Part shown: one piece after another, positions 518 through 63,435 of the stretch
Position numbering within the stretch: position 1 is the first letter of the stretch
Layout of the letters: each line of letters starts with the position of its first letter
Sequence record: PX393110.1
Strand: one strand, 5' to 3'
DNA: 64,000 nt
Origin: a phage
Program-made: the position numbers and the translations under genes
Notes under the pieces: model-generated
What the model saw: only the letters and a program-made list of their open reading frames with translations
Told to the model about the DNA's origin: nothing
Database searches by the model: none

Positions 518-971
518 TAATTACTTCCTTACCCAGAGATTTAGCATGGGTTACACAGTTACCTGTACCACCCTTGCTGCCATCCCATAAGGCTAATCCC
601 TTCTGACTACGGTTAACCATGTAACGGTTACGCACCATCATCTTGAAAGAATCATACCCAGGCTCGGAAACTATAATTGTGCGACGACTTCTCCTGCAGA
701 GCTCAGTCCATTTTTCTACATCTGCAGATCGCCACATCTTGGGCTGGTCAATCATAGGGACTGCTGCGAAATATGGTATTCCGAGGTTAGCACATGCTTG
801 AGCACATGCCATGTCCCATCCTAAAGCCATACCCACGAACCAGCAGTCGACCTTATTTTCTTCGGTCAACCTCTGGATATGATGTTCGGCAAACTGGGTA
901 AGCTGATCATGGCTAAAGATATCCCAGCCACCCAGTTTATCTGGCCTATGACCAGTGACGAACATAAACAT
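477..971 (-). CDS. hypothetical protein, possible Rossmann-like (SLOG/DprA-like) nucleotide-binding fold
   Basis: 164 aa ORF; glycine-rich GSKGGTGN and GxxxG motifs; family assignment is weak inference. Confidence 0.4.
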   Translation of the reverse strand: MFMFVTGHRPDKLGGWDIFSHDQLTQFAEHHIQRLTEENKVDCWFVGMALGWDMACAQACANLGIPYFAAVPMIDQPKMWRSADVEKWTELCRRSRRTIIVSEPGYDSFKMMVRNRYMVNRSQKGLALWDGSKGGTGNCVTHAKSLGKEVINVWEDYVKITGSP

Positions 972-1312
972 TACTTCTTCTCTATCTTGGCCTGCTTAGC
1001 CTTAACTAAAGCCAATGCGTTAGCCAGTTTAGCAGAAGTATCCTGCGGACCATCTTCTTCGAGCTGTTTCTTCAGGGACTCCATACGATCGGTAGTCCCT
1101 TTAGTATCCATCTCGATTAATTCGTTGATGGTCGACCCGCCGACGTTAGGTAACTTGCCGAGTTGCGACAAATCCTTAACTTCGGGGATCTTAACGTGAA
1201 GTTGAATAGACTGGGATGCTCTCGCGAATGACCCAGCACGACGATTGTCTCCTACCTTATTATATAGGGAAGATAGGTTACCCAGGAACGTAATGATATC
1301 AGCAGTTTTCAT
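971..1312 (-). CDS. helix-hairpin-helix motif protein
   Basis: ATG at 1310-1312 with GGAGG RBS; LPNVGGSTINEL resembles an HhH DNA-binding motif. Confidence 0.45.
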   Translation of the reverse strand: MKTADIITFLGNLSSLYNKVGDNRRAGSFARASQSIQLHVKIPEVKDLSQLGKLPNVGGSTINELIEMDTKGTTDRMESLKKQLEEDGPQDTSAKLANALALVKAKQAKIEKK

Positions 1313-1330: not shown

Positions 1331-1366
1331 TTTAACAGCCTTTGGACCTTACAAAAGAGCGGTTTT
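1331..1366 (-). promoter_or_regulatory. conserved promoter-like motif (plus reading TTTAACAGCCTTT-N-ACAAAAGAGCGG)
   Basis: one of 8 near-identical intergenic copies, each 20-30 nt upstream of a minus-strand start codon. Confidence 0.5.
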
Positions 1367-28951: not shown

Positions 28952-31936
28952 ATGTCTTATAATCCGATCTTAGAAGGATCAACCTGGCCGGAGACTATTC
29001 GTCGCTTAGAAAAGACGGATAGGGCGGAAGGTGGGCCACTAGTTACTAATTCTGAGGATGAACCAGTATCTGGACATATTAATCATCCAATAACTCAGTT
29101 AGCTACCAGAACTTCCATTTTAAAAAAGTATAATTTATCGATAATTAATAACACTAAAGAACAGTGGAAATTATTACTCGGTGACTTAGGACTAACTCTT
29201 GTTGGTACTTTTGAAGAAGGCGCTACTACTAACAGCAAGACTGATGCTGTTTGGCATATTGCTGGTGGTCAGTGTTACGTGTGGGGTGGTTTACTCCCTA
29301 AGACTGTATATGCTAACTCCACACCGCTAACTACTGGTGGTATCTCTGCTGATGCTTGGGTTAGTATTGGTGATGCCGCACTGCGAGGGCAAATATCAGA
29401 CCCGGACGGTGCGACAAAATACCCTGAATTGCAGATTGCTAGATGGCGTGACACTTTTGACCCTCGCGGTTGGGGAGCTAAAGGTGATGGATTAGTTGAT
29501 GATACTGTGGCTCTTAATAATCTGTTAAACGCTGCGCCAGTGGGTCAGAAAATTAATGGTAACGGTAGAACCTATAAAGTATCTGTGCTTCCAGATATTA
29601 GCCGATTCGTCAACACTCGTTTCGTTTATGAGCGTATTCCTGGCCAGACGCTTTATTATGTGTCTGACGAGTTTGTTCAGGGTGAGTTAATTAAAATAAC
29701 CGACACGCCTTATTACAATGCCTGGCCGCAGGATAAAGCGTTCGTTTACGACGATGTTATTTACTGTCCGTTCATGGCTAGCGATCGGCACGGGGTTAGC
29801 AGGCTGCATGTATCCTGGGTTCGCTCAGGTGATGACGGACAGACCTGGACGACCCCGGAGTGGCTAACCGACCTGCACCCTAATTACCCGACAGTTAACT
29901 ATCACTGTATGAGTATGGGTGTGATGCGCAACCGCCTATTTGCGATGATTGAAACCCGTACATTGGCATCTAACGCACTGGTGACTTGCGAGTTATGGGA
30001 TCGGCCCATGTCCCGTAACTACCATCCGACAGGTGGCATCACAAAAGCCGCCAACCAGCCTGTGGCTGTAATTACCATCCCTGAACACGGTCTTTTTGCT
30101 GGGGATTTTGTTAACTTCTCAAACTCTGGGGTGACTGGCGTTTCAGGGAATATGACTGTAACTTCAGTTATTGACCGCAACACGTTTACAGTTACCACGC
30201 CAAATCAACAAGCATTCGACCAAAATAACTCTACCAGCCGCTGGCATATGGGGACATCGTTCCATCAGTCACCATGGCGTAAAACCAGCCTTGGATTGAT
30301 CCCCATGGTTACCGAGGTTCACAGTTTTACCGCCATCAATAACGATTCATTCATGATGGGATATCACCAGGGTGATGTTGCTCCGCGTGAAGTCGGTATG
30401 TTGTATTTTCCGGATGCGTTCAACAATCCTGGGCTTTATCAGAAACGGCATATTCCTGCTGAATATGAGCCAGATGCGGCAGAACCCTGCGTTAAGTATT
30501 TTGACGGTGTTCTTTATGTTGTAACCCGTGGAACCAGGTCTGATCGTCTTGGTAGTTCTCTGCATCGCAGTAGCGACCTGGGGATTACCTGGCAATCACT
30601 GAGGTTTCCGAATAACGTCCACCACTCTACCCTGCCATTCGCTAAGGTAGGAAACGAACTGATTCTTTTCGGCACCGAACGCGCCGACAACGAGTGGGAA
30701 GCAAACGCACCGGATCAACGATATTTCAGTTCTTACCCACGGACGTTCTACACGAGAGTGAACCTCGACACCTGGAACCTGAATAATACTCAGTGGGTAA
30801 ATATCACTGATCAGATTTATCAGGGTGGTATTGTTAACTCTGGCGTCGGTGTCGGATCGGTCGTCGTGAAAGATAGTTATATCTATTACATGTTCGGTGG
30901 GGAAGACCATCTGAACCCATGGACATATGGAGATAACTTAGAGAAAGACCCATTCAAATCAGACGGTCATCCCTCAGATTTGTATTGTTACAAAATGCAG
31001 ATCGGTCCAGACAATCGTGTTTCTCGTGATTTCAGGTACGGTGCTGTACCTGACAGAGCGGTTCCAGTGTTTTTTGATACGAATGGAATTCGCACTGTTC
31101 CTGCGCCTATGGAGTTCACCGGTGATTTAGGGTTAGGTCATGTGACCATTAGAGCCAGCACCAGTAATAACGTTCGCTCTGAAGTTTTAATGGAAGGTGA
31201 GTATGGGTTTATTGGGAAATCTGTACCTACTAATAACCCAGCAGGACAGCGCACCATATTTTGCGGTGGCGAAGGAACCAGTTCTTCTACTGGTGCACAG
31301 ATTACGCTTTATGGTGCTAATAACACAGCTTCTCGCAGGATAGTTTACAACGGAGCTGAGCATCTGTTCCAGACTGCTGACGTTAAGCCTTATAACGATA
31401 ACGCGATTGCGCTCGGTGGGCCTAGCAACCGATTCACTACTGCATACCTCGGAAGCAACCCTATTGTTACTTCTAACGGGGAGAAGAAAACAGAGCCGGT
31501 ATTTTTTGACGATGCTTTTTTAGATGCTTGGGGCGACGTTCATTACATCATGTACCAGTGGTTGGATTCTGTACACTTGAAAGGAAATGACGCTAGAATT
31601 CATTTTGGCGTAATTGCTCAGCAGATCCGCGATGTATTCATTGCTCACGGTCTGATGGATGAGAATAGCACGGATTGCCGCTATGCCGTTCTGTGTTACG
31701 ACAAATATCCTCGCATGACAGACATGGTGTTCTCTCACAATGAAATCGTTGAACACACTGACGAGGAGGGTAATGTAACTACCACGGAAGAACCTGTATA
31801 CACCGAGGTGGTTATTCACGAAGAGGGTGAGGAGTGGGGTGTGCGGCCTGATGGAATTTTCTTTGCTGAGGCAGCATTCCAGAGAAGAAGACTGGAGAGA
31901 ATCGAAGCCAGACTTTCCGATCTTGAAAAGAAATAG
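28952..31936 (+). CDS. sialidase-like tailspike (endosialidase-like) with C-terminal intramolecular chaperone domain
   Basis: 994 aa; two Asp-box motifs (SGDDGQTW, SSDLGITW); GAKGDG motif; C-terminal S74-like chaperone region; distinct codon usage. Confidence 0.7.
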   Translation: MSYNPILEGSTWPETIRRLEKTDRAEGGPLVTNSEDEPVSGHINHPITQLATRTSILKKYNLSIINNTKEQWKLLLGDLGLTLVGTFEEGATTNSKTDAVWHIAGGQCYVWGGLLPKTVYANSTPLTTGGISADAWVSIGDAALRGQISDPDGATKYPELQIARWRDTFDPRGWGAKGDGLVDDTVALNNLLNAAPVGQKINGNGRTYKVSVLPDISRFVNTRFVYERIPGQTLYYVSDEFVQGELIKITDTPYYNAWPQDKAFVYDDVIYCPFMASDRHGVSRLHVSWVRSGDDGQTWTTPEWLTDLHPNYPTVNYHCMSMGVMRNRLFAMIETRTLASNALVTCELWDRPMSRNYHPTGGITKAANQPVAVITIPEHGLFAGDFVNFSNSGVTGVSGNMTVTSVIDRNTFTVTTPNQQAFDQNNSTSRWHMGTSFHQSPWRKTSLGLIPMVTEVHSFTAINNDSFMMGYHQGDVAPREVGMLYFPDAFNNPGLYQKRHIPAEYEPDAAEPCVKYFDGVLYVVTRGTRSDRLGSSLHRSSDLGITWQSLRFPNNVHHSTLPFAKVGNELILFGTERADNEWEANAPDQRYFSSYPRTFYTRVNLDTWNLNNTQWVNITDQIYQGGIVNSGVGVGSVVVKDSYIYYMFGGEDHLNPWTYGDNLEKDPFKSDGHPSDLYCYKMQIGPDNRVSRDFRYGAVPDRAVPVFFDTNGIRTVPAPMEFTGDLGLGHVTIRASTSNNVRSEVLMEGEYGFIGKSVPTNNPAGQRTIFCGGEGTSSSTGAQITLYGANNTASRRIVYNGAEHLFQTADVKPYNDNAIALGGPSNRFTTAYLGSNPIVTSNGEKKTEPVFFDDAFLDAWGDVHYIMYQWLDSVHLKGNDARIHFGVIAQQIRDVFIAHGLMDENSTDCRYAVLCYDKYPRMTDMVFSHNEIVEHTDEEGNVTTTEEPVYTEVVIHEEGEEWGVRPDGIFFAEAAFQRRRLERIEARLSDLEKK

Positions 31937-43601: not shown

Positions 43602-44225
43602 TTAGAAACGATCGCGACCTATGATTGGTGCGACTGGTTTAAAGTCAGTCTGGTCGTAACCTTTGTAAAGGTCGTAGCCACCACCAGCAACCTCAGTAAA
43701 GTAAATCTGACCGATGCGCATGTTAGAACGCAGTCGGATAGTGTTAGGGCTTAGGTTAACAATCTCTAGAGTAAATGCTCCCTTGAATCCAAAGTCCCCG
43801 AAACCTGCACTGACATGGCTCAGTATTCCCAGACGACCCATAGTGCTGCGACCGTCGTAATGCTGACAGAATGCCACACCACGGTCTACAGTGCTGTTAC
43901 GGTATCGTGGGTCATAATGCTCGAACCACTTCTCAGGCAACATGGTAGTACAGTCGATACGTTCAGATGCTGAGCCTAAGATGAACTCCCCAGGTTTAAG
44001 ATCGTAGTATAGTGCCTCTACCTCGCGATACTCCGGAAGAGTACATGGTTTATAGGGATCTACTACATGGCCATCAGGCATCTTTTGAGGAACCAGGAAG
44101 AACGGAGCTAAGCGTACATCTACACTATTCTGTCCGATTCGTGGTTCCTGATTGTCCAGATAACTGTGATAGGTCCATAATCCTTGAGTAATTGCCTGCT
44201 CAATATAAGATTTACCAAGGATCAT
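43602..44225 (-). CDS. dCTP deaminase-like protein (dUTPase superfamily)
   Basis: 207 aa; size and motif layout of Dcd family. Confidence 0.55.
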   Translation of the reverse strand: MILGKSYIEQAITQGLWTYHSYLDNQEPRIGQNSVDVRLAPFFLVPQKMPDGHVVDPYKPCTLPEYREVEALYYDLKPGEFILGSASERIDCTTMLPEKWFEHYDPRYRNSTVDRGVAFCQHYDGRSTMGRLGILSHVSAGFGDFGFKGAFTLEIVNLSPNTIRLRSNMRIGQIYFTEVAGGGYDLYKGYDQTDFKPVAPIIGRDRF

Positions 44226-44510: not shown

Positions 44511-44981
44511 TTACTTAATCCCGGAATGGCCAAACCCACCGTCGCCACGTTCAGAAACATCAGAGAATTTATCCACAAGCTGGAGCTCTGGATGGATAAC
44601 GGGAAGAAACACCATTTGAGCGATACGGTCGCCGTGGTTAATAACGAAAGATTCGTTACTACGGTTCCACACAGACACCATCAGTTCTCCTTGATAGCCG
44701 GAGTCGATAAGACCAACCAAGTTACCCAGTACGATGCCATTTTTATGGCCGAGGCCGCTGCGGGGAAGAATCACAGAAGCGATGTTCGGATCGCCGATGT
44801 TGATCGCTAGACCGGTAGGGACCAGGATAGTTTCGCCAGGATTTACAGCGATTTTATCGATTTCGTCAGTCTTAATCATCGCACGAAGATCAAGACCAGC
44901 ATCACCAGCTTTAGCGTATTTCGGTAACTCCAGAGAGTCGTCCCAGTTAATAGTTTTCTTTACTTGAACTACGGTCATCAT
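44511..44981 (-). CDS. dut: dUTP diphosphatase
   Basis: 156 aa; [39 protein letters not shown] motifs of trimeric dUTPases. Confidence 0.85.
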
Positions 44982-45602: not shown

Positions 45603-45634
45603 TTTAACAGCCTTTGGAGGCTACGAAAGAGCGG
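45603..45634 (-). promoter_or_regulatory. conserved promoter-like motif
   Basis: TTTAACAGCCTTTGGAGGCTACGAAAGAGCGG, about 20 nt upstream of start at 45582. Confidence 0.5.
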
Positions 45635-45944
45635 AATCTTCGTCAGGTAATGAATTAACGAAGTCAGCTATAACTTGAGCATGACATGGTAACGGTAAGC
45701 AGGAGCACCCTAAAGTCTTACCCTTAAGAGTCCGTAAGTAGGAGATGCTTATGTGGCCATCTTTTACTTGCTGGTGGAACCATAGTCTGTATTTCGCGAT
45801 GGCTAATGTTCGGGAACCTACGTTAATAGCGTTAGGTAAATCTTTATGGCTCCACTTATTCCCGAATATAGTACCTCTCCCAACATATAAATCGTAGTTA
45901 GGATTGGTACGTATATTAACCACCCGACAAAGCTTACTCTCCAT
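45621..45944 (-). CDS. DUF4326-like protein
   Basis: YVGRG...GNKW...GKTLGCSCLPLPCHAQV layout recalled from DUF4326. Confidence 0.5.
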   Translation of the reverse strand: MESKLCRVVNIRTNPNYDLYVGRGTIFGNKWSHKDLPNAINVGSRTLAIAKYRLWFHQQVKDGHISISYLRTLKGKTLGCSCLPLPCHAQVIADFVNSLPDEDSALS

Positions 45945-46647
45945 CTTCCACAGAGTTACCCTGCATAGCAATCATGGTATTCACCTCGTGCTCCAGATCC
46001 TGTAACTCTTTTACACGATTGATGGTGCGAACCCAAGTCTTAGCTTCCAGCATCGCATCGAACAATGCATGGTGATCAGACATAGACTCGTGCTGGCTAC
46101 TCAGTTCTTCTTTAATCATGCGACGATCATCGAATGAGATCAGCTGCAGACTAGCCAGAGTGCGGTAATCTCGATTCATCCAGTGTAGGAACGGGGTCTT
46201 ACGTCCTTTAGCCTTAAAGTACCAATCCAGGAATCCCTGGTCGAACTCTGGTGCGTTACCGATGAAGTTCAACATCTGGCAACCAGGATCCTGTAGTACC
46301 TTAGCTACGTACTCTTCGATGATATCCAGAGCTTCGTCAACAGATACTGGATTAGCATATGCAGCATCACGGACGGGTTTCGGGAGAGTGTTGAGCCATT
46401 CAACTACGTTAGGGTCAGACTTCATACCCAGAGCCAGCGACTCTTCTCGATCAATAGTGAAGTAGACGTGGGAGTAGTGATCAGGACCAACCGTCACCAT
46501 ACCTACAGATAGAACTACCCCAGGCTCTTTAAAATCGAGATACTCGGTCTCGATGTCAATTGCGCAGTGGTAGGAGTCGTGATATGACAGGAATCGGTTA
46601 AACAGTTTATTCGGAGCCAGATGGTGTGGCATCATCTTAGTAGACAT
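45934..46647 (-). CDS. 3'-5' exonuclease, DEDDh (DnaQ/RNase T-like)
   Basis: AIDIETE (Exo I), FDQGFL (Exo II), HHALFDA (Exo III) motifs. Confidence 0.7.
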   Translation of the reverse strand: MSTKMMPHHLAPNKLFNRFLSYHDSYHCAIDIETEYLDFKEPGVVLSVGMVTVGPDHYSHVYFTIDREESLALGMKSDPNVVEWLNTLPKPVRDAAYANPVSVDEALDIIEEYVAKVLQDPGCQMLNFIGNAPEFDQGFLDWYFKAKGRKTPFLHWMNRDYRTLASLQLISFDDRRMIKEELSSQHESMSDHHALFDAMLEAKTWVRTINRVKELQDLEHEVNTMIAMQGNSVEDGE

Positions 46648-46677: not shown

Positions 46678-46708
46678 TTTAACAGCCTTTCGAGGGTAAG
46701 AAACGGCG
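46678..46708 (-). promoter_or_regulatory. conserved promoter-like motif (degenerate copy)
   Basis: TTTAACAGCCTTTCGAGGGTAAGAAACGGCGG upstream of exonuclease gene. Confidence 0.4.
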
Positions 46709-46711
46709 GAA

Positions 46712-47351: not shown

Positions 47352-48011
47352 TTAGTCTTCTTCGCCCCACTCATCGTCGTAGGCCTGCTTAGGGGTCTTA
47401 CCTTCATCGTAATCATCCCGCCAGGCTTCCGCATCAGCAGCGCTACCGCCACGAGACTGAGCGTATTGGTGCAGCAGTTTATGCCACTCCGCAAACGATC
47501 CTGTCTCCTTGGTCATTTGTTCCATAACTAACTCCTCCCGAAGTTTCATCAGTAATCGTCCGAGCATATTAATACCAGTGAGGACGGACTTGTACTCCTC
47601 ACGAGTCATACCCCAGAAGGAATCTCCGTGGGTATTTCCTTCGACCAGCTCCTTAGGCCAAGTATCGGTCAATTTTTGAGCTAGCTCCCCACCTTTCGCG
47701 AATTTAATCCGGAGTAGGTGTTCCATCACATCTACTCTCTGTTCCTTCCACGATTCAGTAATGGGCAGCTTACGTCCATATCTCTTGGCCTCACCAGGAG
47801 TATGAAGTCTAGCTATGATAAGACGATGGGCTAGTGATGGAGACTTAGATGCTTGATAGGCATGCTCCACACTAGGGTAAGTAAGGGAGGGAAGAGTCTC
47901 GTTCCCGTAAGGATTCTTATCCTCAATAGGAACAGGATAAAAGTTAGATAGGAATCGGTACTCTCCGATAAACTCCAGAATAGAGTTCTTGTCGGTCCAG
48001 ATCCGCATCAT
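47352..48011 (-). CDS. NADAR (YbiA-like) domain protein, putative ADP-ribosyl N-glycosidase
   Basis: YRFLSNFYP, VEHAYQASK, KRYGRK...WKEQRVDVMEHLLRIKF, LVEGN..D.FWG colinear with E. coli YbiA. Confidence 0.75.
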   Translation of the reverse strand: MMRIWTDKNSILEFIGEYRFLSNFYPVPIEDKNPYGNETLPSLTYPSVEHAYQASKSPSLAHRLIIARLHTPGEAKRYGRKLPITESWKEQRVDVMEHLLRIKFAKGGELAQKLTDTWPKELVEGNTHGDSFWGMTREEYKSVLTGINMLGRLLMKLREELVMEQMTKETGSFAEWHKLLHQYAQSRGGSAADAEAWRDDYDEGKTPKQAYDDEWGEED

Positions 48012-49369: not shown

Positions 49370-49397
49370 AATTTCTCCTAACAGTAGTTCTGACACC

Positions 49398-49428
49398 TTA
49401 ACAGCCTTTCAGCACCTAAAAAGAGCGG
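49398..49428 (-). promoter_or_regulatory. conserved promoter-like motif
   Basis: TTAACAGCCTTTCAGCACCTAAAAAGAGCGG. Confidence 0.5.
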
Positions 49429-50793: not shown

Positions 50794-50825
50794 TTTAACA
50801 GCCTTTTGACCGTACAAAAGAGCGG
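50794..50825 (-). promoter_or_regulatory. conserved promoter-like motif
   Basis: TTTAACAGCCTTTTGACCGTACAAAAGAGCGG. Confidence 0.5.
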
Positions 50826-55862: not shown

Positions 55863-55894
55863 TTTAACAGCCTTTGGAACCCTATAAAGAGCGG
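55863..55894 (-). promoter_or_regulatory. conserved promoter-like motif
   Basis: TTTAACAGCCTTTGGAACCCTATAAAGAGCGG. Confidence 0.5.
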
Positions 55895-55896
55895 TT

Positions 55897-56526
55897 TTAT
55901 TTAGGGATCCATGAATACTTTAAATTCCATGGCCTAGGGGTACCATGGAAACAAACTACTGCAACCCCATTAGGCACCGACCCGTTTCCGGTAGACCTGT
56001 GACAGTAATGCTCCTGGTCAGGACCTACTACTGATACCTTGTAGGAACAGAATTTACCTGGGTAGAGATCTTGTATGCGAGGTACTCCATTAAAGAATGG
56101 GCAGATAAACTCCTGATCACCACCTACAGAGTGATTAGCCATGAATCTATCTGGACTAACTATCCAAGCATTCCAGATGCGCTCAGCTAAGATAGGCTCA
56201 ACACGCATCACGCTACTGTTAACCATCCCAGTATGGTACCAGTCTCGGAGAATAGTTGATTCGTCACAGTTCAGCAGGAATGTGATATCGTCGATAATTG
56301 CTGTATCTAAATCGAAGAACACGAATGGCTCCTGGATAGTGAATAGCTCCATCTTACTCCACCAGCCAGGATAATCATGCTTCATAGGTATCCACTCAAC
56401 TCCTTCGATAGGCTCTTTAGAGATACATGCATATCTTGTACCTTCTGGGAGTTGTCTACCTACCCATTTAACGTGATCTTCTGTGAAGTCCTTACCCTTA
56501 CGAAATACCGTAACCACTAGCGACAT
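55897..56526 (-). CDS. putative glycosyltransferase (DxD-containing)
   Basis: 209 aa; FDLDTAIIDD possible DxD motif; in glycosyltransferase cluster. Confidence 0.4.
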   Translation of the reverse strand: MSLVVTVFRKGKDFTEDHVKWVGRQLPEGTRYACISKEPIEGVEWIPMKHDYPGWWSKMELFTIQEPFVFFDLDTAIIDDITFLLNCDESTILRDWYHTGMVNSSVMRVEPILAERIWNAWIVSPDRFMANHSVGGDQEFICPFFNGVPRIQDLYPGKFCSYKVSVVGPDQEHYCHRSTGNGSVPNGVAVVCFHGTPRPWNLKYSWIPK

Positions 56527-57485
56527 TTAGTCTTCTCCATATGTTTAAATCCCTGGATCATGTTCTTAGCCACGTTATCCCAGGTACAATCTTTAACCTT
56601 ATCAGCAATCTTGGTTCTGTTAAGCTTAAGGAGTATTTCGTCCCAGTTTATCTTAGAGCCAACTATGTGATGCTCCACAGATTCCAGACGATCTTTAGGA
56701 ATAAGCCCTTCCTTAGTTACTATCAGAGCTCCGCACCGAGCCGCTTCCAGGACAGTAAGGCCTAACGACTCCTTATGAGTAACTATGAAGATGTCGCAGC
56801 ATCTGATTAATGCAGCGAACTCCTGACTGCTTACTCCTCCACGACGATACTCCTCAACACTTATATTCTCCTCGTCGATAACGCATAATCCATTATCGGT
56901 AAGAGTGTAAGATACGTGAGGAACCGGAATATGCTTAAGGTTCATCATCATGGTTAGGGAGTAATCGAAGTCCGACAGGTCAAATAGCGGATGGTCTACG
57001 AATATCCTAAGTACACCATCCGACATCTTCTCTGGGTAGAATAGCTTATCATCAGCTGCCCACCCTACCTGCCAGTTATTATCCAGATGCCTTTTCAGAC
57101 GACTCGGATTGTCTAAGTACTTATAGGTATCGTCCCGAAGAGTGAAAGTTACGTCTACCTGTTTACAGTCTAGCATCGAACCATCATAGATATGGGTAAC
57201 TAATCCCTTAAAGTGCTTCTTAAGGTATTCTCCTATTTCTAGAGGAATCTGAGTAAACGGACGTACTCCCACATATAAGATATGATCGCACTTCTCTTCC
57301 CGAGCTATTTCTAATACTTGATCAGCATAGACATGAGGATTAACCGAATCGTGGTACTCTGGCCATAATACTAACTCTACTCCATTAGCCTCCAGAGCGC
57401 CTCGGAGATGATATTTCCACATGGTACTGAAGTTAGTTATCTGATGTGAACTACCAGGACAATTTGCTATATACAGTAACTTCAT
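56517..57485 (-). CDS. GT-B fold glycosyltransferase (GT4-like)
   Basis: 322 aa; ESLGLTVLEAARCGALIV matches the E-x7-E motif. Confidence 0.65.
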   Translation of the reverse strand: MKLLYIANCPGSSHQITNFSTMWKYHLRGALEANGVELVLWPEYHDSVNPHVYADQVLEIAREEKCDHILYVGVRPFTQIPLEIGEYLKKHFKGLVTHIYDGSMLDCKQVDVTFTLRDDTYKYLDNPSRLKRHLDNNWQVGWAADDKLFYPEKMSDGVLRIFVDHPLFDLSDFDYSLTMMMNLKHIPVPHVSYTLTDNGLCVIDEENISVEEYRRGGVSSQEFAALIRCCDIFIVTHKESLGLTVLEAARCGALIVTKEGLIPKDRLESVEHHIVGSKINWDEILLKLNRTKIADKVKDCTWDNVAKNMIQGFKHMEKTKCR

Positions 57486-58086
57486 TCACCCATTCCTCAA
57501 CAGTAGTTTTACGAGTCCCACCAATCCCTGATAGCGACTGTATATTTATCTTTTCTGTAGCCGACTTAATTAAAATAGGAAGATGGCTAAGGTTATTTGG
57601 TACCCCACCAGATACTCTTGGTTCTGGGCTACCATCTACCCCAACCAACAAGAGATCAGTGTGACCCATATGATAAGCTAATCCGATCGCCCCATAAGCG
57701 CTATTCCCGGAACTGATTACATCAGGATCCTCAGATAACCCAGGAACTGCTCGCCATCTCCACAGCCACCATAGAGGAGTACCATAGATAGGCTCCTCCC
57801 CACGATGTTCGTCCCGCTTAAGTAAGTGTGCTTTATAACCAGAATATAGATGCATATCTGCTTCGTCCACAGCAAGGTAATAACGAGTACCCATCCTAGG
57901 ATTCTGGATACGGCATAGATTAGCTTGGCTAGGATCCAGAGTAAAGAAGTAATTAGCTCTGGGTAACCACTCTATGGCACCATTAACCGCAAATATCGGT
58001 ATCTCATGTGGAGGAGTGAATCCTCTTGCCGATGGTCCATCTGCTACAATTATGGCAGGTCTTCTATACTTAGCCTCTCGAAGCAT
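57451..58086 (-). CDS. CstII/Maf-like (GT42/DUF115 superfamily) putative glycosyltransferase
   Basis: ADGPSA ... SSGNSAYGAIGLAYHMG ... LLVGVDGS layout; paralog of next gene. Confidence 0.45.
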   Translation of the reverse strand: MLREAKYRRPAIIVADGPSARGFTPPHEIPIFAVNGAIEWLPRANYFFTLDPSQANLCRIQNPRMGTRYYLAVDEADMHLYSGYKAHLLKRDEHRGEEPIYGTPLWWLWRWRAVPGLSEDPDVISSGNSAYGAIGLAYHMGHTDLLLVGVDGSPEPRVSGGVPNNLSHLPILIKSATEKINIQSLSGIGGTRKTTVEEWVNEVTVYSKLSW

Positions 58087-58586
58087 GTTATTTTAGTCCT
58101 TCTGGTACAATTGATTATAGTAATACTATCTGGAAGGTATCTCTGGACCAAGTAATAGTCCTCAATCCATTTAGCAACTGTTTCAAGATCTGGATTAGTT
58201 AACCCACCAGTATGATCTCCATGGAAATGGCTACCATCTGAAATATCACAGTCATAGCCGAGAAGTACTATCTCTTTAGGAGCAAATACGCTGGCCAAGA
58301 AGATAGCTTGAGCGCCCGAGCTATAACAACTATTCAAGTAGAAGAACTGTTTTACATCTGGGTGATTCTCTACAGGAAGATGGCTGTACTTAGAGCATGT
58401 GCTTGGGACATTATTATAATTATGCTCCCACCAGATAGGATCGAATCCATAAACTATATTGGGAGGTCTGGATGAGAACATGGCGTTATTAGCGCTAATA
58501 ACCAAGTCGGACTTACTAGCAAGTAGTAAATAATCCTCCTCGGTTAGAGAAGGACCGCTAGCTACACACATTATTCTCTTTATCAT
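58050..58586 (-). CDS. CstII/Maf-like (GT42/DUF115 superfamily) putative glycosyltransferase
   Basis: ASGPSLTEEDY ... YSSGAQAIFLASVF ... LLGYDCD layout resembles CstII-type sialyltransferase. Confidence 0.5.
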   Translation of the reverse strand: MIKRIMCVASGPSLTEEDYLLLASKSDLVISANNAMFSSRPPNIVYGFDPIWWEHNYNNVPSTCSKYSHLPVENHPDVKQFFYLNSCYSSGAQAIFLASVFAPKEIVLLGYDCDISDGSHFHGDHTGGLTNPDLETVAKWIEDYYLVQRYLPDSITIINCTRRTKITCFERLSIEDLP

Positions 58587-59290
58587 AAGTACTGTCTAAC
58601 CTCTGGGCTAAGGACCGTATCCATAATAGCTGAAGTGCATTCCCCATCAACCCAGTCACCAAGTACTTCAGTAAGTGCTGAGTTAATTGCGGTAGTCATG
58701 TACTCTTTAAGGAGTAATGCCTCTTCGTTAATGTAGTCGGTTACGTCCTTAACGAAAGTAGCTACCGACTCAAAAGCACCATCCAGAGTATCCTTAAGTT
58801 CCTGAGCCTTAACCAGAAGATCTTCGGTATCGTCCAGGCCCAGGAACTCCTCAATGCTGTTAGCTGCTTCCCCAACGGCCTCTGTGACTGTATTCAGTGC
58901 TCGTTGGCCAATACCACCCACGATACCCATCACAGAGTTAAATGGGGTACATGCCGTAGCTACACCGAATTTATCCATGGCTGCTGCATAGTTCTTGGCT
59001 ATGTTAATTCTGGAGTACATGTTCTGTACAGATTCATCACCGTAGGCAACTAGCGTAGAGATGCTGGATAAGTTACCCTCCATAGCTATCTGGGCTGCGT
59101 TGATATAGGCTGGATCTATACCGGCCTTATTAAGAGCTTCTGCCTTAAGTGCCGAAGGATTCTGTAGCTGGCTTAATCCGCTAACTACAGACTGGGTTTT
59201 CTCACCAGCTACAGCGCCTACATCGCTGAGTGGGTTAATAGTACCACGGCCAGCTTGCAGAACCTGGAATACTTTATTCTTATCAACCAT
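58583..59290 (-). CDS. hypothetical protein
   Basis: 235 aa; GGAG RBS; immediately downstream of terminator. Confidence 0.5.
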   Translation of the reverse strand: MVDKNKVFQVLQAGRGTINPLSDVGAVAGEKTQSVVSGLSQLQNPSALKAEALNKAGIDPAYINAAQIAMEGNLSSISTLVAYGDESVQNMYSRINIAKNYAAAMDKFGVATACTPFNSVMGIVGGIGQRALNTVTEAVGEAANSIEEFLGLDDTEDLLVKAQELKDTLDGAFESVATFVKDVTDYINEEALLLKEYMTTAINSALTEVLGDWVDGECTSAIMDTVLSPEVRQYL

Positions 59291-59305
59291 CGTTAAACTC
59301 CATAC

Positions 59306-59333
59306 GTAAAAATAAGGGAGACCGAAGTCTCCC
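59306..59333 (-). terminator. rho-independent terminator
   Basis: 7-bp stem GGGAGAC/GTCTCCC with CGAA loop; minus-sense U-tract TTATTTTTA. Confidence 0.7.
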
Positions 59334-59382
59334 TATGATTATTTTATTCTAGTAGATTACATGTACCAGTATCTAATAAGCA

Positions 59383-59649
59383 TTATCTTTGTTCATCGTA
59401 CTTCTCCAATGTATAGTTACCGCTGCTGCTGGGGTAGAGGTGAATAACTCCTTCAGGAAATCCCCTGTGACCTCTTAATTCGTCTTCGGTCTGAGGAGCT
59501 TTAACGCAGTCTTTAGGGCTAACCCTATATAGCTGGCATAACCTGTGGAATGATATATGATGCATATCACCATCGGCACTTAACACAGGACCTGGGTGAA
59601 CTACATATTTAACCATTATTTTATCCTCAATGATACCGACATAGGACAC
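59383..59649 (-). CDS. hypothetical protein
   Basis: 88 aa ORF. Confidence 0.45.
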   Translation of the reverse strand: MSYVGIIEDKIMVKYVVHPGPVLSADGDMHHISFHRLCQLYRVSPKDCVKAPQTEDELRGHRGFPEGVIHLYPSSSGNYTLEKYDEQR

Positions 59650-59664
59650 CCGAAGATGTCCTAT
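59641..59664 (-). promoter_or_regulatory. conserved intergenic stem-loop (ACATAGRGCACC family)
   Basis: 8-bp stem ATAGGACA/TGTCCTAT with 8-nt loop. Confidence 0.4.
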
Positions 59665-59670
59665 AGCTTA

Positions 59671-59925
59671 TCACTGGTTCAGAACTGCCACGATCTTTTC
59701 TGCCACCTGCTCCAGAGTATCGTCGCTATCATAGTCGAAGTCTGGAATACTGTCTTCCATACCCAGTTCATCTTCAACACGCATGATGATCTCCACTTCA
59801 TCCAGAGAATCTGCACCTAACTGCTCACCGGTAGTAGTTTCAGTTACTTCCAGAATATCAACCATCATGATGTCAGCTACTGCAGATCGCAGTGCATCTT
59901 TAACCTGTTCCAAAGTTACAGACAT
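59671..59925 (-). CDS. acyl carrier protein homolog
   Basis: 84 aa acidic; LGADSLDEVEIIMRVEDELG matches ACP phosphopantetheine-attachment motif; start shares one nt with ligase stop. Confidence 0.75.
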   Translation of the reverse strand: MSVTLEQVKDALRSAVADIMMVDILEVTETTTGEQLGADSLDEVEIIMRVEDELGMEDSIPDFDYDSDDTLEQVAEKIVAVLNQ

Positions 59926-61868
59926 TATTCAGCTCCAATGATTTTACGGAATTGATCTTCGGTAACGATCTTGGTACCCTTAGCTTCGGCAGCCTTAAAC
60001 TTACTGGACTGACTTGGTTTATCGCATACCAGATATTCTGCGTCGCCGATACCGACTTCGACTACGCCATATTTGATCCAGGAGTTAACCAGTTCGCTAC
60101 GAGGCTTACTAAGCTTACCAGTTAAGCAGATCTTGAACTTTCCTTCCGGAAGCGGTTCCTCTACCTTAGAGGCCACCCAGTTCAGAGGAAGATTCAGCAC
60201 CTTCAGGATTACTTCCTGATTCTCTACAATCTTCTTAGCTACGGAACCCATGCATGCATCATAGATTGCCTTACAGATTTTGTAGTCCTCGGTATTGACC
60301 TGGATACCGTCATTAACCATGTCGTGGAAGCTATTGTTACGCAATACACGAATCATCTGGTCGCGAGTCACCGCAGTGGCAATACGCACTCCTGTTGCAT
60401 AACCAAGGCCATCCGTCCAGGTACAGGTCAGCATGTGGTCCATAGAGATAGGACGATCCTTCATATTGAAGAAGGACTGACGAGTAAGCTGGAGAGGGCC
60501 ATCGTACATCTCTACCATACTGAATACTGGATGAGATGGACCAGTCTCGATGATATCGTTCAACATGGCAACATCATCTAGTTTAGCCTGCTCGGCAAAC
60601 TTGTTGATATTCGTCCCACCGAGACCCTTAGGAGCGAAGTCACGGATTATCGTACGAATAACCATCGGGTCTAACTTAGTCTTGATGCGAATATGCACGC
60701 CATCCCAGAAAGTACGTACCCCATCGACGAATTCAGGAATTACCGCAGTGACGGGTTCCACGACTTCTTCGATATGAGGAATTACCTCGTTACGGCGACT
60801 GATCTTGATCTTAGCACCAGGTCCGATACCAGCACTCTTGATGTACTCAGCATTCCATCCGGATGCATAAGTTACATTAACTCCACTCATGTCTACCGTC
60901 TCGAACTCAACAGTAGGCACGACTCGGCCGTAACCACTAACTACCCAGTGTACCTTAACCACGGTAGTGTCATAGAATGCTGATTGGTACTTGATCTTAT
61001 AGTGGACAGTATTCTTGCCCAGCATATTCTCATCCCAGTCAACATTCAGAGATCCCAGAACTACGCCATCCAACAGGTAGTTGCAGACCGGATCTTCGCG
61101 GAACTTAGATGGTGGGTTAGCCACTAGCCAAGTATTGACATAACCAGCAGGAAGAACGAAGTACTTAACTACTTTGAACCCAGCCTTACTTAAACATAGT
61201 AGCAGCTGGTTGTAGTCATCCATCCATGTCTCGTGATCCACATCCTCGTAGAATGCAGTTACCGAATATGCAACCACATCCAGCAGTTCCATTAATGCAG
61301 GATCACTGTATTTAGCCAGAGCAATACCAGAAGCAGCATTACGCTGGTTACTGTACTCGTGGCTGATCCGCTCGAACTTATCATCGGGAATAACGATTTC
61401 GCAGCGGACTTCTTTAATACCTTTAGGAACCTGGCGAGGAAACTCGGCACACTCCAGACTCTTCGTGATGTCCAGACCAGTGACGCCGTCGTGACGAGTT
61501 AAGCCACGGACGAAGTTACCGTCGTAGTCGTAATACAGAACTACCGAGATGCCGTCCAGTTTAGCCGAAGCGACGAATCCCTTAACTTCTTCGTGACCAT
61601 GGAGGAAGTTAAATCCCTCTTCCACAGCACCGATCTTAACCTGGTCAAGACCACCCACGAATGAACCATGTGGGCACTTAGCCAGATGTTCAGCAGCTTC
61701 GGTTACTCCCCAGCCTGGGGTAGTGAGGAGTGGGTTAGTAGGATCCAGCTCAGCTAATTTCTCGGTAAGAGCATCGAACTCTTCGTCCGTAATAATGGGC
61801 TGGTCACCATTATAATATGCATTAGCCGCATTCTTAATTTGCTCTATCAGAGCAGCGACTTTTTCCAT
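59925..61868 (-). CDS. ligA: NAD-dependent DNA ligase
   Basis: 647 aa; KLDG adenylation motif in context colinear with E. coli LigA; C-terminal BRCT-like region. Confidence 0.85.
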   Translation of the reverse strand: MEKVAALIEQIKNAANAYYNGDQPIITDEEFDALTEKLAELDPTNPLLTTPGWGVTEAAEHLAKCPHGSFVGGLDQVKIGAVEEGFNFLHGHEEVKGFVASAKLDGISVVLYYDYDGNFVRGLTRHDGVTGLDITKSLECAEFPRQVPKGIKEVRCEIVIPDDKFERISHEYSNQRNAASGIALAKYSDPALMELLDVVAYSVTAFYEDVDHETWMDDYNQLLLCLSKAGFKVVKYFVLPAGYVNTWLVANPPSKFREDPVCNYLLDGVVLGSLNVDWDENMLGKNTVHYKIKYQSAFYDTTVVKVHWVVSGYGRVVPTVEFETVDMSGVNVTYASGWNAEYIKSAGIGPGAKIKISRRNEVIPHIEEVVEPVTAVIPEFVDGVRTFWDGVHIRIKTKLDPMVIRTIIRDFAPKGLGGTNINKFAEQAKLDDVAMLNDIIETGPSHPVFSMVEMYDGPLQLTRQSFFNMKDRPISMDHMLTCTWTDGLGYATGVRIATAVTRDQMIRVLRNNSFHDMVNDGIQVNTEDYKICKAIYDACMGSVAKKIVENQEVILKVLNLPLNWVASKVEEPLPEGKFKICLTGKLSKPRSELVNSWIKYGVVEVGIGDAEYLVCDKPSQSSKFKAAEAKGTKIVTEDQFRKIIGAE

Positions 61869-61898
61869 CTTTGTTATTCCTTACGGTTGGATTGACAC

Positions 61899-61930
61899 TT
61901 TAACAGCCTTTTAGCACCCTAAAAGAGCGG
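61899..61930 (-). promoter_or_regulatory. conserved promoter-like motif
   Basis: TTTAACAGCCTTTTAGCACCCTAAAAGAGCGG, 30 nt upstream of ligase start. Confidence 0.5.
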
Positions 61931-61932
61931 AA

Positions 61933-62706
61933 TTAGCGATTCTCAGGTTCTACGTATTCCAGACCAAGCAGCTGATACAGTTCTTCCTCAGAGGAATTAG
62001 TATCCACACGTTCACCGGTCTCTACATTAAACAGGCCATACTCATTAAGAGTCATGCCCATACGCTTAGCCACCGAACGCATGTGTACGTTATTCTGCAT
62101 TGATCCTGTGGAGTGAAGTAAGCACGCGTTCCAGGATTCTTCTGGACAGATCTTGATATCAAATTCCATACCAGTATTAGTATGGACGAATCGGATCTTT
62201 TTATCCTTACCATACAGTTCCTCCATACCGGTAAGACGGAAAGCATGGCGAACTATTTCTGGAGGGAAGGTAGTAAGCAGGTCTACGTCGCGAATCCACA
62301 TCTTACCACGACGTACCGAACCAGCTGTAGAGATACGACCAGAGCTACCCTCGGCAAGACTCAGTTTGGTCACTTCCGTTAGGTAGGACTCAATGATATC
62401 CTTAACCTCAGTGGAGTAAGCAACACGACCTTCTGGGACTTTAGACATAAGTTCAATGAACTTAGGAGTCATGGTGCCATACTTAGCGAAGGCTTCTAAC
62501 TCGCTAGCAATCCCAGCACCTATCCATGGGATTGTAGTGAAGTTCATCTGGGAAGTTACACCATACGGGTAATCATCCAAGGAACGGGCTGCACGATCAT
62601 ACGCCCTAACATGCCACACGGAATCACCATGGGCTTTCTTAAGCTCGGCTATTTGGCGAAGGTGGCGAACAGCATCAATACGGAAGGTCATCCTAACAGG
62701 CTCCAA
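61933..62706 (-). CDS. DNA polymerase X family (Pol beta-like) nucleotidyltransferase
   Basis: GSVRRGKMWIRDVDLL nucleotidyltransferase motif; C-terminal region colinear with Pol beta thumb. Confidence 0.7.
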   Translation of the reverse strand: MEPVRMTFRIDAVRHLRQIAELKKAHGDSVWHVRAYDRAARSLDDYPYGVTSQMNFTTIPWIGAGIASELEAFAKYGTMTPKFIELMSKVPEGRVAYSTEVKDIIESYLTEVTKLSLAEGSSGRISTAGSVRRGKMWIRDVDLLTTFPPEIVRHAFRLTGMEELYGKDKKIRFVHTNTGMEFDIKICPEESWNACLLHSTGSMQNNVHMRSVAKRMGMTLNEYGLFNVETGERVDTNSSEEELYQLLGLEYVEPENR

Positions 62707-62856
62707 AACAGAGTTCTAAAAGTGGCGAATCCGCTGATAATGATGGTGGCCAACACCACCATCCAGAAATACTTTTTAGGGATATTCCAGACCAGACGAC
62801 GGATCACCGTGTGCATTGCTGTGGTGAGTAATTGATCAAGAGTCGGAATTTTCATT

Positions 62857-63228: not shown

Positions 63229-63406
63229 GATAGAGTTCCTTATGCGAAGTGGAAGATAGCAACAACAGCAGCCCAGAATGCAAAGCTCAGACCAAATACC
63301 AGAGCCCAGCTGTAACGATCTACGAAGCGGATGAGTTTAGTTGACATTATTTTCTCCAAAATTAGATTATACTAAGTTAGTGGACTGGAGCCGCCGGAGC
63401 CGCCCC

Positions 63407-63435
63407 ACCCAAAAGAACGGGCTTTAAACCCGTTC
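63407..63435 (-). terminator. rho-independent terminator
   Basis: 7-bp stem GAACGGG/CCCGTTC; minus-sense U-tract; adjacent GAGCCGCC direct repeat. Confidence 0.6.

Follow-up and report, generated by a model that had tools for sequence, protein, structure and literature searches.

Do a DNA polymerase gene and a DNA ligase gene that lie side by side in a phage genome form a repair module, and what would each of them contribute? The question is raised by a 64,000-nucleotide (nt) stretch of phage DNA (sequence record PX393110.1; the whole of it is called the window here), in which a short gene for a family X polymerase, Pol X, stops 64 nt before the start of a gene for an NAD+-dependent ligase of the LigA type. 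Both lie on the minus strand. A reading made from the sequence alone had placed such a polymerase upstream of LigA, and this order is confirmed, with domain Ia, adenylation and OB domains recognizable in the ligase. We consider it probable (roughly 0.68) that these genes supply a phage pathway resembling base excision repair with its gap-filling polymerase and its nick-sealing ligase, a pathway typical of the SP15-like (RP13-like) hypermodified-thymidine phages. Family membership, an intact polymerase site, the loss of the fingers and of the canonical lyase lysines, gene order, and transcription signals were established in this analysis; the activities and substrates of the two enzymes in this phage we infer. 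The main features are as follows.

61933..62691, minus strand: Pol X gene, 252 amino acids (aa), with Pfam HHH_8 and DNA_pol_B_thumb; ATG start at 62691
62440..62679, minus strand: N-terminal 8-kDa-type helix-hairpin-helix (HhH) domain of Pol X, residues 5-84, placed by hhalign and Pfam HHH_8
61936..62412, minus strand: palm and thumb of Pol X with the predicted polymerase active site, residues 94-252, placed by alignment to Pol beta
61899..61930, minus strand: copy of a 32-nt promoter-like motif, CCGCTCTTTTAGGGTGCTAAAAGGCTGTTAAA, within the spacer that separates Pol X from the ligase, before the ligase
59925..61868, minus strand: predicted NAD+-dependent (LigA-type) DNA ligase, 647 aa, with Pfam Nlig-Ia, DNA_ligase_aden, and DNA_ligase_OB

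The 2.8-kb region holding both genes is 95.8% identical in DNA to Escherichia phage vB_EcoM_IME392 (MH719082, 116 kb) and 92.8% identical to phage EP_H11, and the window as a whole is about 96% identical to IME392. In the IME392 record the polymerase gene is labelled "putative DNA-directed DNA polymerase family X" and the ligase gene "putative DNA ligase". The pair is thus already known, being annotated in IME392 and described for the phage family.

The polymerase and its domains

Pol X carries the GSVRRGKMWIRDVDL motif. Its thumb matches Pfam PF14791 (E=1.1e-20, 73.6 bits against a cut-off of 25) and its N-terminal part matches PF14716, the 8-kDa-type HHH_8 family, above threshold (E=1.6e-12). 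The closest solved relative by sequence is Thermus thermophilus PolX (3au2, E=1.6e-21), in which query residues 14-95 align with the 8-kDa domain and residues 124-255 with the palm and thumb; Pol lambda and Pol beta are also among the PDB sequence matches. The family alignment matches human Pol beta in a profile-profile comparison at 99.9% probability (E=1.5e-32), and all 60 matches listed for the family profile against PDB sequences are family X DNA polymerases. We obtained an AlphaFold2 model from an alignment of 22 sequences, with a mean predicted local distance difference test score (pLDDT) of 91.4. All 50 Foldseek matches listed for this model against the PDB are Pol beta, Pol lambda, or Thermus PolX, which rules out the non-polymerase nucleotidyltransferase fold (CCA-adding or antibiotic enzyme) against which the sequence-only reading had asked that its proposal be checked. 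Among PHROGs, no family matched Pol X at E<=1e-3. A BFVD model of a 94%-identical protein superposed poorly on ours (template modeling [TM] score 0.64, root mean square deviation 7.5 A), so that the arrangement of the domains relative to one another is either flexible or unreliable. Judged by sequence and predicted fold, Pol X is a genuine family X DNA polymerase.

The active site is intact. Residues G124, S125, R127, R128, D135, D137, and D178 correspond to Pol beta G179, S180, R182, R183, D190, D192, and D256, and residues T195, G196, N201, and R205 to Pol beta T273, G274, N279, and R283. The profile alignment that had been suggested as a check therefore finds the three catalytic aspartates present. 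We compared residues across 39 short Pol X relatives, 9 from the close clade and 30 more distant, and the catalytic and deoxynucleoside triphosphate-binding residues are invariant in all 39, except for the third aspartate (33 of 39). In place of Pol beta Tyr271 and Phe272, Pol X has His193 and Ser194; African swine fever virus (ASFV) Pol X, too, probably has a His in place of Tyr271. With its active-site residues intact, our Pol X is very probably an active, template-reading polymerase.

The length of the protein depends on its start codon. The open reading frame (ORF) called mechanically spans 61933..62706 on the minus strand and gives 257 aa from a TTG at 62706. The most likely start is the ATG at 62691, which gives 252 aa, because it has GGAG 9 nt upstream, overlaps the stop of a 55-aa ORF in an ATGA, and agrees with IME392, where Pol X is annotated at 252 aa. 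The GS-x-RRG...DxD motif and Pol beta-like C terminus described earlier for this ORF are upheld by PF14791 and the alignment; the length of 257 aa probably is not.

The sequence-only reading also held that the lyase/DNA-binding domain was missing. We found instead that the 8-kDa domain is present and that the fingers have been deleted. By hhalign, residues 5-84 match Pol beta's 8-kDa domain (residues 13-89) at 98.8% probability (E=1e-16), whereas the match of the N-terminal domain to the Pol beta fingers reaches 14.8%, and only through the common hairpin. The idea that this domain is a fingers homologue came from a PDB profile search, which had put the family HhH on the Pol beta fingers (profile 44-253 against chain 95-333); the domain-by-domain comparison rejects it. 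In the Pol X alignments the fingers (D) subdomain, with its second HhH, has no counterpart (Pol beta residues ~92-148), the Pfam scan of Pol X gave no PF10391 or HHH_5, and the linker from the 8-kDa domain to the first palm helix is only about 10 residues long. Alignment and model agree that Pol X is an enzyme with an 8-kDa domain but without a fingers subdomain. Human Pol beta (1bpx) and Thermus PolX (3au2) have in common with it the 8-kDa HhH, palm, and thumb, along with GS-x-RRG, DxD, the third Asp, TGS, and equivalents of Asn279 and Arg283 (Foldseek E ~1e-15; profile search E=7e-49); unlike these enzymes, Pol X has neither fingers nor a PHP domain.

The 8-kDa domain has also lost its lyase lysine. 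Pol beta Lys72, the Schiff-base nucleophile, corresponds to Glu64, and the residue is Glu in 9 of 9 members of the close clade; a Lys is kept at this position in 20 of the 30 more distant proteins. The other pocket lysines are replaced as well, with Lys35 corresponding to His27, Lys68 to Gly60, and Lys60 to Thr52. Given Glu64 and these further losses, canonical 5'-deoxyribose phosphate (dRP) lyase activity is unlikely in Pol X. The dRP-lyase lysine is a trait of the Pol beta/lambda subgroup and not of family X as a whole.

The layout of 8-kDa domain, palm, and thumb is by no means rare. When 1.84 billion cluster representatives (50%-identity clusters) were searched exhaustively with the profile, about 40 of the best 150 matches were 234-273 aa long and matched end to end in one stretch, and BFVD holds two phage models with this layout. 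The 8-kDa-palm-thumb layout is absent from a survey of bacterial polymerases published in 2026, in which PolX1, PolX2, and PolX-like enzymes are listed (PMC12926913). Two longer proteins among the representatives carry a short Pol X of this kind at their C-terminal side, one (P0069, 1055 aa) behind an N-terminal region with ankyrin repeats and the other (P0125, 406 aa) behind a 5'-nucleotidase (NT5C)-like domain. Rhizobium phage RHph_TM30 encodes a 318-aa "DNA polymerase family X protein" (L023 2483-3439) that, as aligned, has TEIEI at the DxD site and Ser at the third aspartate; to judge by these substitutions it may be polymerase-dead, despite having kept its 8-kDa and fingers regions.

Like Pol X, the ASFV enzyme (174 aa) is a viral family X polymerase without fingers, and it is tied to viral base excision repair. 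It also lacks the 8-kDa domain, which Pol X keeps, so Pol X does not have the ASFV layout of palm and thumb only, and the structural match between the two is weak (BFVD rank 15). In 2017, ASFV Pol X was called "the only known exception" to a complete Pol beta core (PMC5537341), and the architecture of Pol X is in this sense intermediate.

The ligase, its promoter-like motif, and the Pol X operon

The ligase has a domain Ia (PF22745, E=3.7e-7, 31.1 bits against a cut-off of 27), an adenylation domain (PF01653, E=1.1e-18), and an OB domain (PF03120, E=3.4e-13), with a weak BRCT match below cut-off (E=0.008). PHROG 3869 matches it over its full length (E=4e-87), and full-length orthologues are found in Ralstonia phage RP13, Acinetobacter phage Ab1-TPeters, and SP-15. 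In RP13, an exodeoxyribonuclease III gene (L021 1396-2199) lies about 800 bp upstream of the LigA orthologue.

In a HMMER alignment to E. coli LigA (2owo), the KLDG of the ligase falls on the K115 motif; the glutamate of motif III and the lysine of motif V are also kept. Domain Ia, which binds nicotinamide mononucleotide (NMN), is the source of NAD+ specificity in LigA. Here Tyr22, Asp32, and Asp36 are identical to E. coli, whereas His23 is replaced by Tyr and Tyr35 by Phe, both of them conservative changes; we take these five, as numbered, to be the NMN/NAD+-binding residues of the E. coli domain. The two ligases have in common domain Ia, adenylation and OB domains, the KxDG lysine, and possibly a C-terminal BRCT-like region. 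The phage enzyme differs in apparently lacking the Cys4 zinc finger (the ~30 residues that follow the OB domain contain no cysteine), in an HhH region without a Pfam match, and in having Gly at motif IV Lys290, a position that is also non-Lys in the RP13, Ab1-TPeters, and SP-15 orthologues. From its domains and motifs, the 647-aa protein is an NAD+-type LigA ligase.

Upstream of the ligase lies one copy of a 32-nt bipartite motif, CCGCTCTTT-N10-AAAGGCTGTTAAA, which occurs 7 times in the window against 0 expected by chance and is the sole strongly repeated element there. All 7 copies are on the minus strand, 20-40 nt before a minus-strand start codon.

1331-1362, 45603-45634, 46678-46709, 49397-49428, 50794-50825, 55863-55894, 61899-61930, minus strand: copies of the 32-nt motif
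1331..1362, minus strand: the copy directly before the gene for a stand-alone HhH protein

The ligase therefore has its motif in common with six other genes, including that for an Rv2179c-like exonuclease. The sequence-only reading had both Pol X and the ligase follow copies of this motif. That is correct for the ligase (61899-61930) and incorrect for Pol X, since our search of the window found no copy before Pol X or its operon. We considered an RNA hairpin, and by eye at most 4-5 bp could form across the variable 10-nt spacer, so we read the motif as a promoter-like DNA element and not as a structure. The motif probably represents a class of promoter that is phage-specific; proteins resembling RNA polymerase subunits are encoded by relatives of this phage.

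Pol X belongs to a different set of genes, which lie upstream of it.

62688..62855, minus strand: 55-aa ORF, hydrophobic by eye, with an ATGA overlap with Pol X (translational coupling); same layout in metagenomic contig L004
62857..63228, minus strand: 123-aa ORF in the same tightly packed operon as Pol X
63240..63347, minus strand: first ORF of the operon, 35 aa and hydrophobic, with a TATAAT hexamer upstream at 63366-63371
63415..63435, minus strand: terminator-like hairpin ending the preceding transcription unit

A single base separates the stop of the 123-aa ORF, which has no Pfam or PHROG match, from the 55-aa ORF. The packed ORFs and coupled start make Pol X the final gene of an operon, without intergenic space of its own, and Pol X is translationally coupled to the small upstream ORFs. 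Contig L004, which is divergent, has in sequence a 125-aa ORF (equivalent to the 123-aa ORF by position only), a small hydrophobic ORF, Pol X with its ATGA overlap, the motif at the equivalent site, and the ligase; identity to the window is 58% for Pol X and 72% for the ligase.

Repair and the alternatives to it

A reading of the pair as repair enzymes draws on published work on related phages. IME392 and EP_H11 have been placed in an "RP13-like" family with hypermodified thymidine (PMC12686479), and EP_H11 and "EcoM_IME92" are among the phages inferred to be T-modified (bioRxiv 10.1101/2025.03.26.645540). The SP15-like phages, of which EP_H11 and IME392 are named as members, have an A-family polymerase with a uracil-DNA glycosylase (UDG) domain, and all encode Pol X and ligase except phiLo (bioRxiv 10.1101/2025.03.26.645540). 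In phage YerA41 of this group, the replicative A-family polymerase carries a fused UDG domain that removes uracil; YerA41 Pol X, which binds this polymerase, cleaves the abasic (AP) site so that a 3'-OH is left; and AP-site cleavage, gap filling, and NAD+-dependent sealing were shown with Pol X and the NAD+ ligase (bioRxiv 10.1101/2025.03.26.645540). PgV has a working fusion of PolX and NAD+ ligase (PMC5537341). The gap-filling and sealing role first proposed for our pair is in line with both precedents.

YerA41 Pol X (gp158) comes from the same phage family, with the same enzyme pair and a context of dCTP deaminase and dUTPase genes as in the window. Over palm and thumb it is ~37% identical to our Pol X, with the catalytic aspartates conserved. 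YerA41 Pol X (298 aa) and Carin-5 Pol X (289 aa) both keep a ~45-residue segment between the 8-kDa-like and palm regions; the Ab1-TPeters enzyme lacks it, like that of the window. The two genes are adjacent in the window, whereas in YerA41 they are treated as separate and non-adjacent (bioRxiv 10.1101/2025.03.26.645540). PgVPolX likewise joins the same two activities for viral repair with an NAD+-dependent ligase, but as one fusion in place of two genes with a promoter-like element between them, and unlike our Pol X it keeps the fingers and the lyase lysines Lys64, Lys89, and Lys101 (PMC5537341).

The A-family polymerase of IME392 is a 1095-aa, Pol I-like enzyme whose gene lies about 15 kb beyond the window. 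Its top PDB match is 9qhs (E=2.4e-39), a 1142-aa "Putative DNA-directed DNA polymerase I" that we take to be the YerA41 enzyme. By eye, the N terminus of the IME392 enzyme has a PF..AGQxL stretch like that of UDG family 4, with GDERE.

In the repair pathway that we favor, the 252-aa Pol X would use its thumb and its single HhH domain to bind an intermediate that is nicked, gapped, or abasic, and would add one or a few nucleotides by two-metal catalysis with D135, D137, and D178. The ligase would be charged with AMP from NAD+ on the KLDG lysine (K103 by our count) and would then seal the nick.

Several observations weigh against this reading. Pfam finds no UDG domain in the IME392 A-family polymerase, and in place of its GDERE, UDG family 4 presumably has GE[AG]PG. 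With RP13 exodeoxyribonuclease III as query, we found no ExoIII-type AP endonuclease in the window, IME392, EP_H11, or Ab1-TPeters. Pol X is only ~26% identical overall to the YerA41 enzyme and ~45 aa shorter, and the segment it lacks carries a GIG (HhH-like) motif in YerA41. With Lys72 and Lys35 of the lyase pocket replaced, the 5'-dRP step is unexplained. The gene arrangement adds further doubt. Pol X and the ligase seem to belong to separate transcription units, and their adjacency is kept in the IME392-like clade only: Ab1-TPeters has its ligase at 49.4 kb and its Pol X at 65.7 kb, ~15 kb apart, and no ligase homologue flanks any of 15 IMG/VR Pol X loci found with a 4-sequence alignment (flanks up to 8 kb each side). 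Since conservation of the adjacency is weak, the functional link between the two enzymes rests on the published work instead.

The alternative that survives best, though we think it unlikely, is that the pair finishes replication and does not repair uracil. Host Pol I and LigA may handle a hypermodified template poorly, and the phage would bring its own pair for lagging-strand maturation and for sealing nicks in packaging or recombination, with any link to uracil secondary. The DNA of the RP13-like phages is indeed not copied by conventional polymerases (PMC12686479). The full-length ligase orthologues across RP13, Ab1-TPeters, and SP-15, the motif that the ligase has of its own, the missing lyase lysine, and the absence of a phage AP endonuclease from the window and IME392 would all suit this explanation. 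On the other side, YerA41 Pol X processes AP sites and binds the UDG-bearing polymerase (bioRxiv 10.1101/2025.03.26.645540), family X enzymes are distributive fillers of short gaps, and the genes seen beside Pol X and the ligase include neither a flap nuclease nor an RNase H. A role in finishing replication is also compatible with the repair reading that we favor.

It is improbable that the two genes are independent and mere neighbors in the IME392-like clade. The promoter-like motif between them, the membership of Pol X in an upstream operon, the distance in Ab1-TPeters, and the IMG/VR loci are all as such chance would have them, and no strong interaction between Pol X and ligase was detected for YerA41 (bioRxiv 10.1101/2025.03.26.645540). 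The two nevertheless co-occur across the phage family and carried out joint repair in vitro for YerA41 (bioRxiv 10.1101/2025.03.26.645540), they are naturally fused in PgV (PMC5537341), and their synteny is kept in L004 even at 58% Pol X identity.

We give very little weight to a role in end joining or terminal transfer like that of Pol mu, Pol lambda, or TdT, with the ligase joining genome ends or double-strand breaks. Loss of the fingers and of the 5'-phosphate-pocket lysines could relax dependence on a gapped template, and His193/Ser194 in place of Tyr271/Phe272 would fit. Yet we saw no sign of Ku, of LigD, or of a BRCT on the polymerase; N201 and R205, the counterparts of Pol beta's minor-groove and template-checking Asn279 and Arg283, are invariant; and the YerA41 homologue acts on templated gaps (bioRxiv 10.1101/2025.03.26.645540). 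That Pol X is some other nucleotidyltransferase of the Pol beta fold (CCA-adding, antibiotic, or cGAS-like) and not a DNA polymerase has practically no likelihood, as nothing beyond the common minimal GS...DxD motif speaks for it, and the family X thumb and 8-kDa domain, together with the uniformly family X Foldseek and profile matches listed, speak against it.

The stand-alone HhH protein and the surrounding genes

The sequence-only reading had looked to a small HhH protein at the other end of the window as a possible source of the lyase/DNA-binding domain.

971..1312, minus strand: stand-alone 8-kDa-like HhH protein, 113 aa, whose start has a good ribosome-binding site and immediately follows a copy of the 32-nt motif

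The HhH ORF is indeed there. It matches Pfam HHH_8 below the gathering threshold (E=2.6e-4), the N-terminal domain of the short Pol X family by hhalign (E=4.7e-5, 68% probability), and, by tblastn (E=7e-6), the N terminus (~residues 7-90) of the Pol X, 318 aa long, that Rhizobium phages encode. A homologous 111-aa ORF is present in Ab1-TPeters, which also has a short Pol X. These matches suggest that the protein is probably a paralogue of the 8-kDa domain at the N terminus of Pol X. Like that domain, it has Glu at the position of Pol beta Lys72, and it therefore cannot supply a canonical lyase, so this part of the proposal falls. Its gene lies 59 kb from Pol X in the window, and its sole tie to the locus is the promoter class that it has in common with the ligase. 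A conserved pairing of this gene with a SLOG/YpsA-like gene was also considered and dropped, as the downstream gene in Ab1-TPeters is not homologous.

It is conceivable, and to us doubtful, that the 8-kDa-palm-thumb Pol X represents a third, undescribed family X architecture, between Pol beta and ASFV Pol X, that is partnered in trans with the stand-alone 8-kDa-like protein. If so, the stand-alone protein, in the same promoter class as the ligase, would provide the missing second HhH clamp or recruit the ligase, and the whole would be a split, re-wired Pol X fitted to hypermodified DNA.

Downstream of the ligase, on the same strand, lies a block of genes (56517-59925) that may be a DNA hypermodification or glycosylation cluster.

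59671..59925, minus strand: acyl-carrier-protein-like gene (Pfam PP-binding, E=1.5e-8), whose ATG overlaps the ligase stop (TAATG)
within 56517-59925, after the acyl-carrier-protein gene, minus strand: phrog_7644 ORF
58583-59290, minus strand: DUF7217 protein
58050-58586, minus strand: MptE/sialyltransferase-like protein
57451-58086, minus strand: 211-aa ORF without a family match
56517-57485, minus strand: glycosyltransferase

The DUF7217 protein and the SLOG/YpsA-like protein (477-971) match different parts of the 500-aa phrog_289 "GTP-binding domain"; what other phages encode as one fused protein seems in this phage to have been split and scattered.

The minus strand between 42 and 64 kb carries genes for nucleotide metabolism and DNA handling, and the plus strand of the window carries structural genes, which encode a tail sheath and a Gp23-like capsid protein along with several tailspikes that include an endosialidase.

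43602-44225, minus strand: dCTP deaminase
44511-44981, minus strand: dUTPase
45934-46647, minus strand: Rv2179c-like 3'-5' exonuclease, preceded by a copy of the 32-nt motif
47352-48011, minus strand: NADAR-domain protein
28952-31936, plus strand: endosialidase tailspike, complete (N-terminal extension, beta-propeller, beta-barrel, and chaperone domains)

The dCTP deaminase and dUTPase are consistent with the route by which hypermodified-thymidine phages supply dUMP/5-hydroxymethyldeoxyuridine. The endosialidase among the tailspikes indicates a host range that includes E. coli with a K1 capsule.

What remains new at this locus is modest: the architecture of Pol X, without fingers and without a lyase lysine, and its possible stand-alone partner. 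Pol X offers a compact predicted structure of high confidence that shows how little of the Pol beta core gap filling may need, and the phage offers a tractable E. coli-phage model for the repair of hypermodified DNA.

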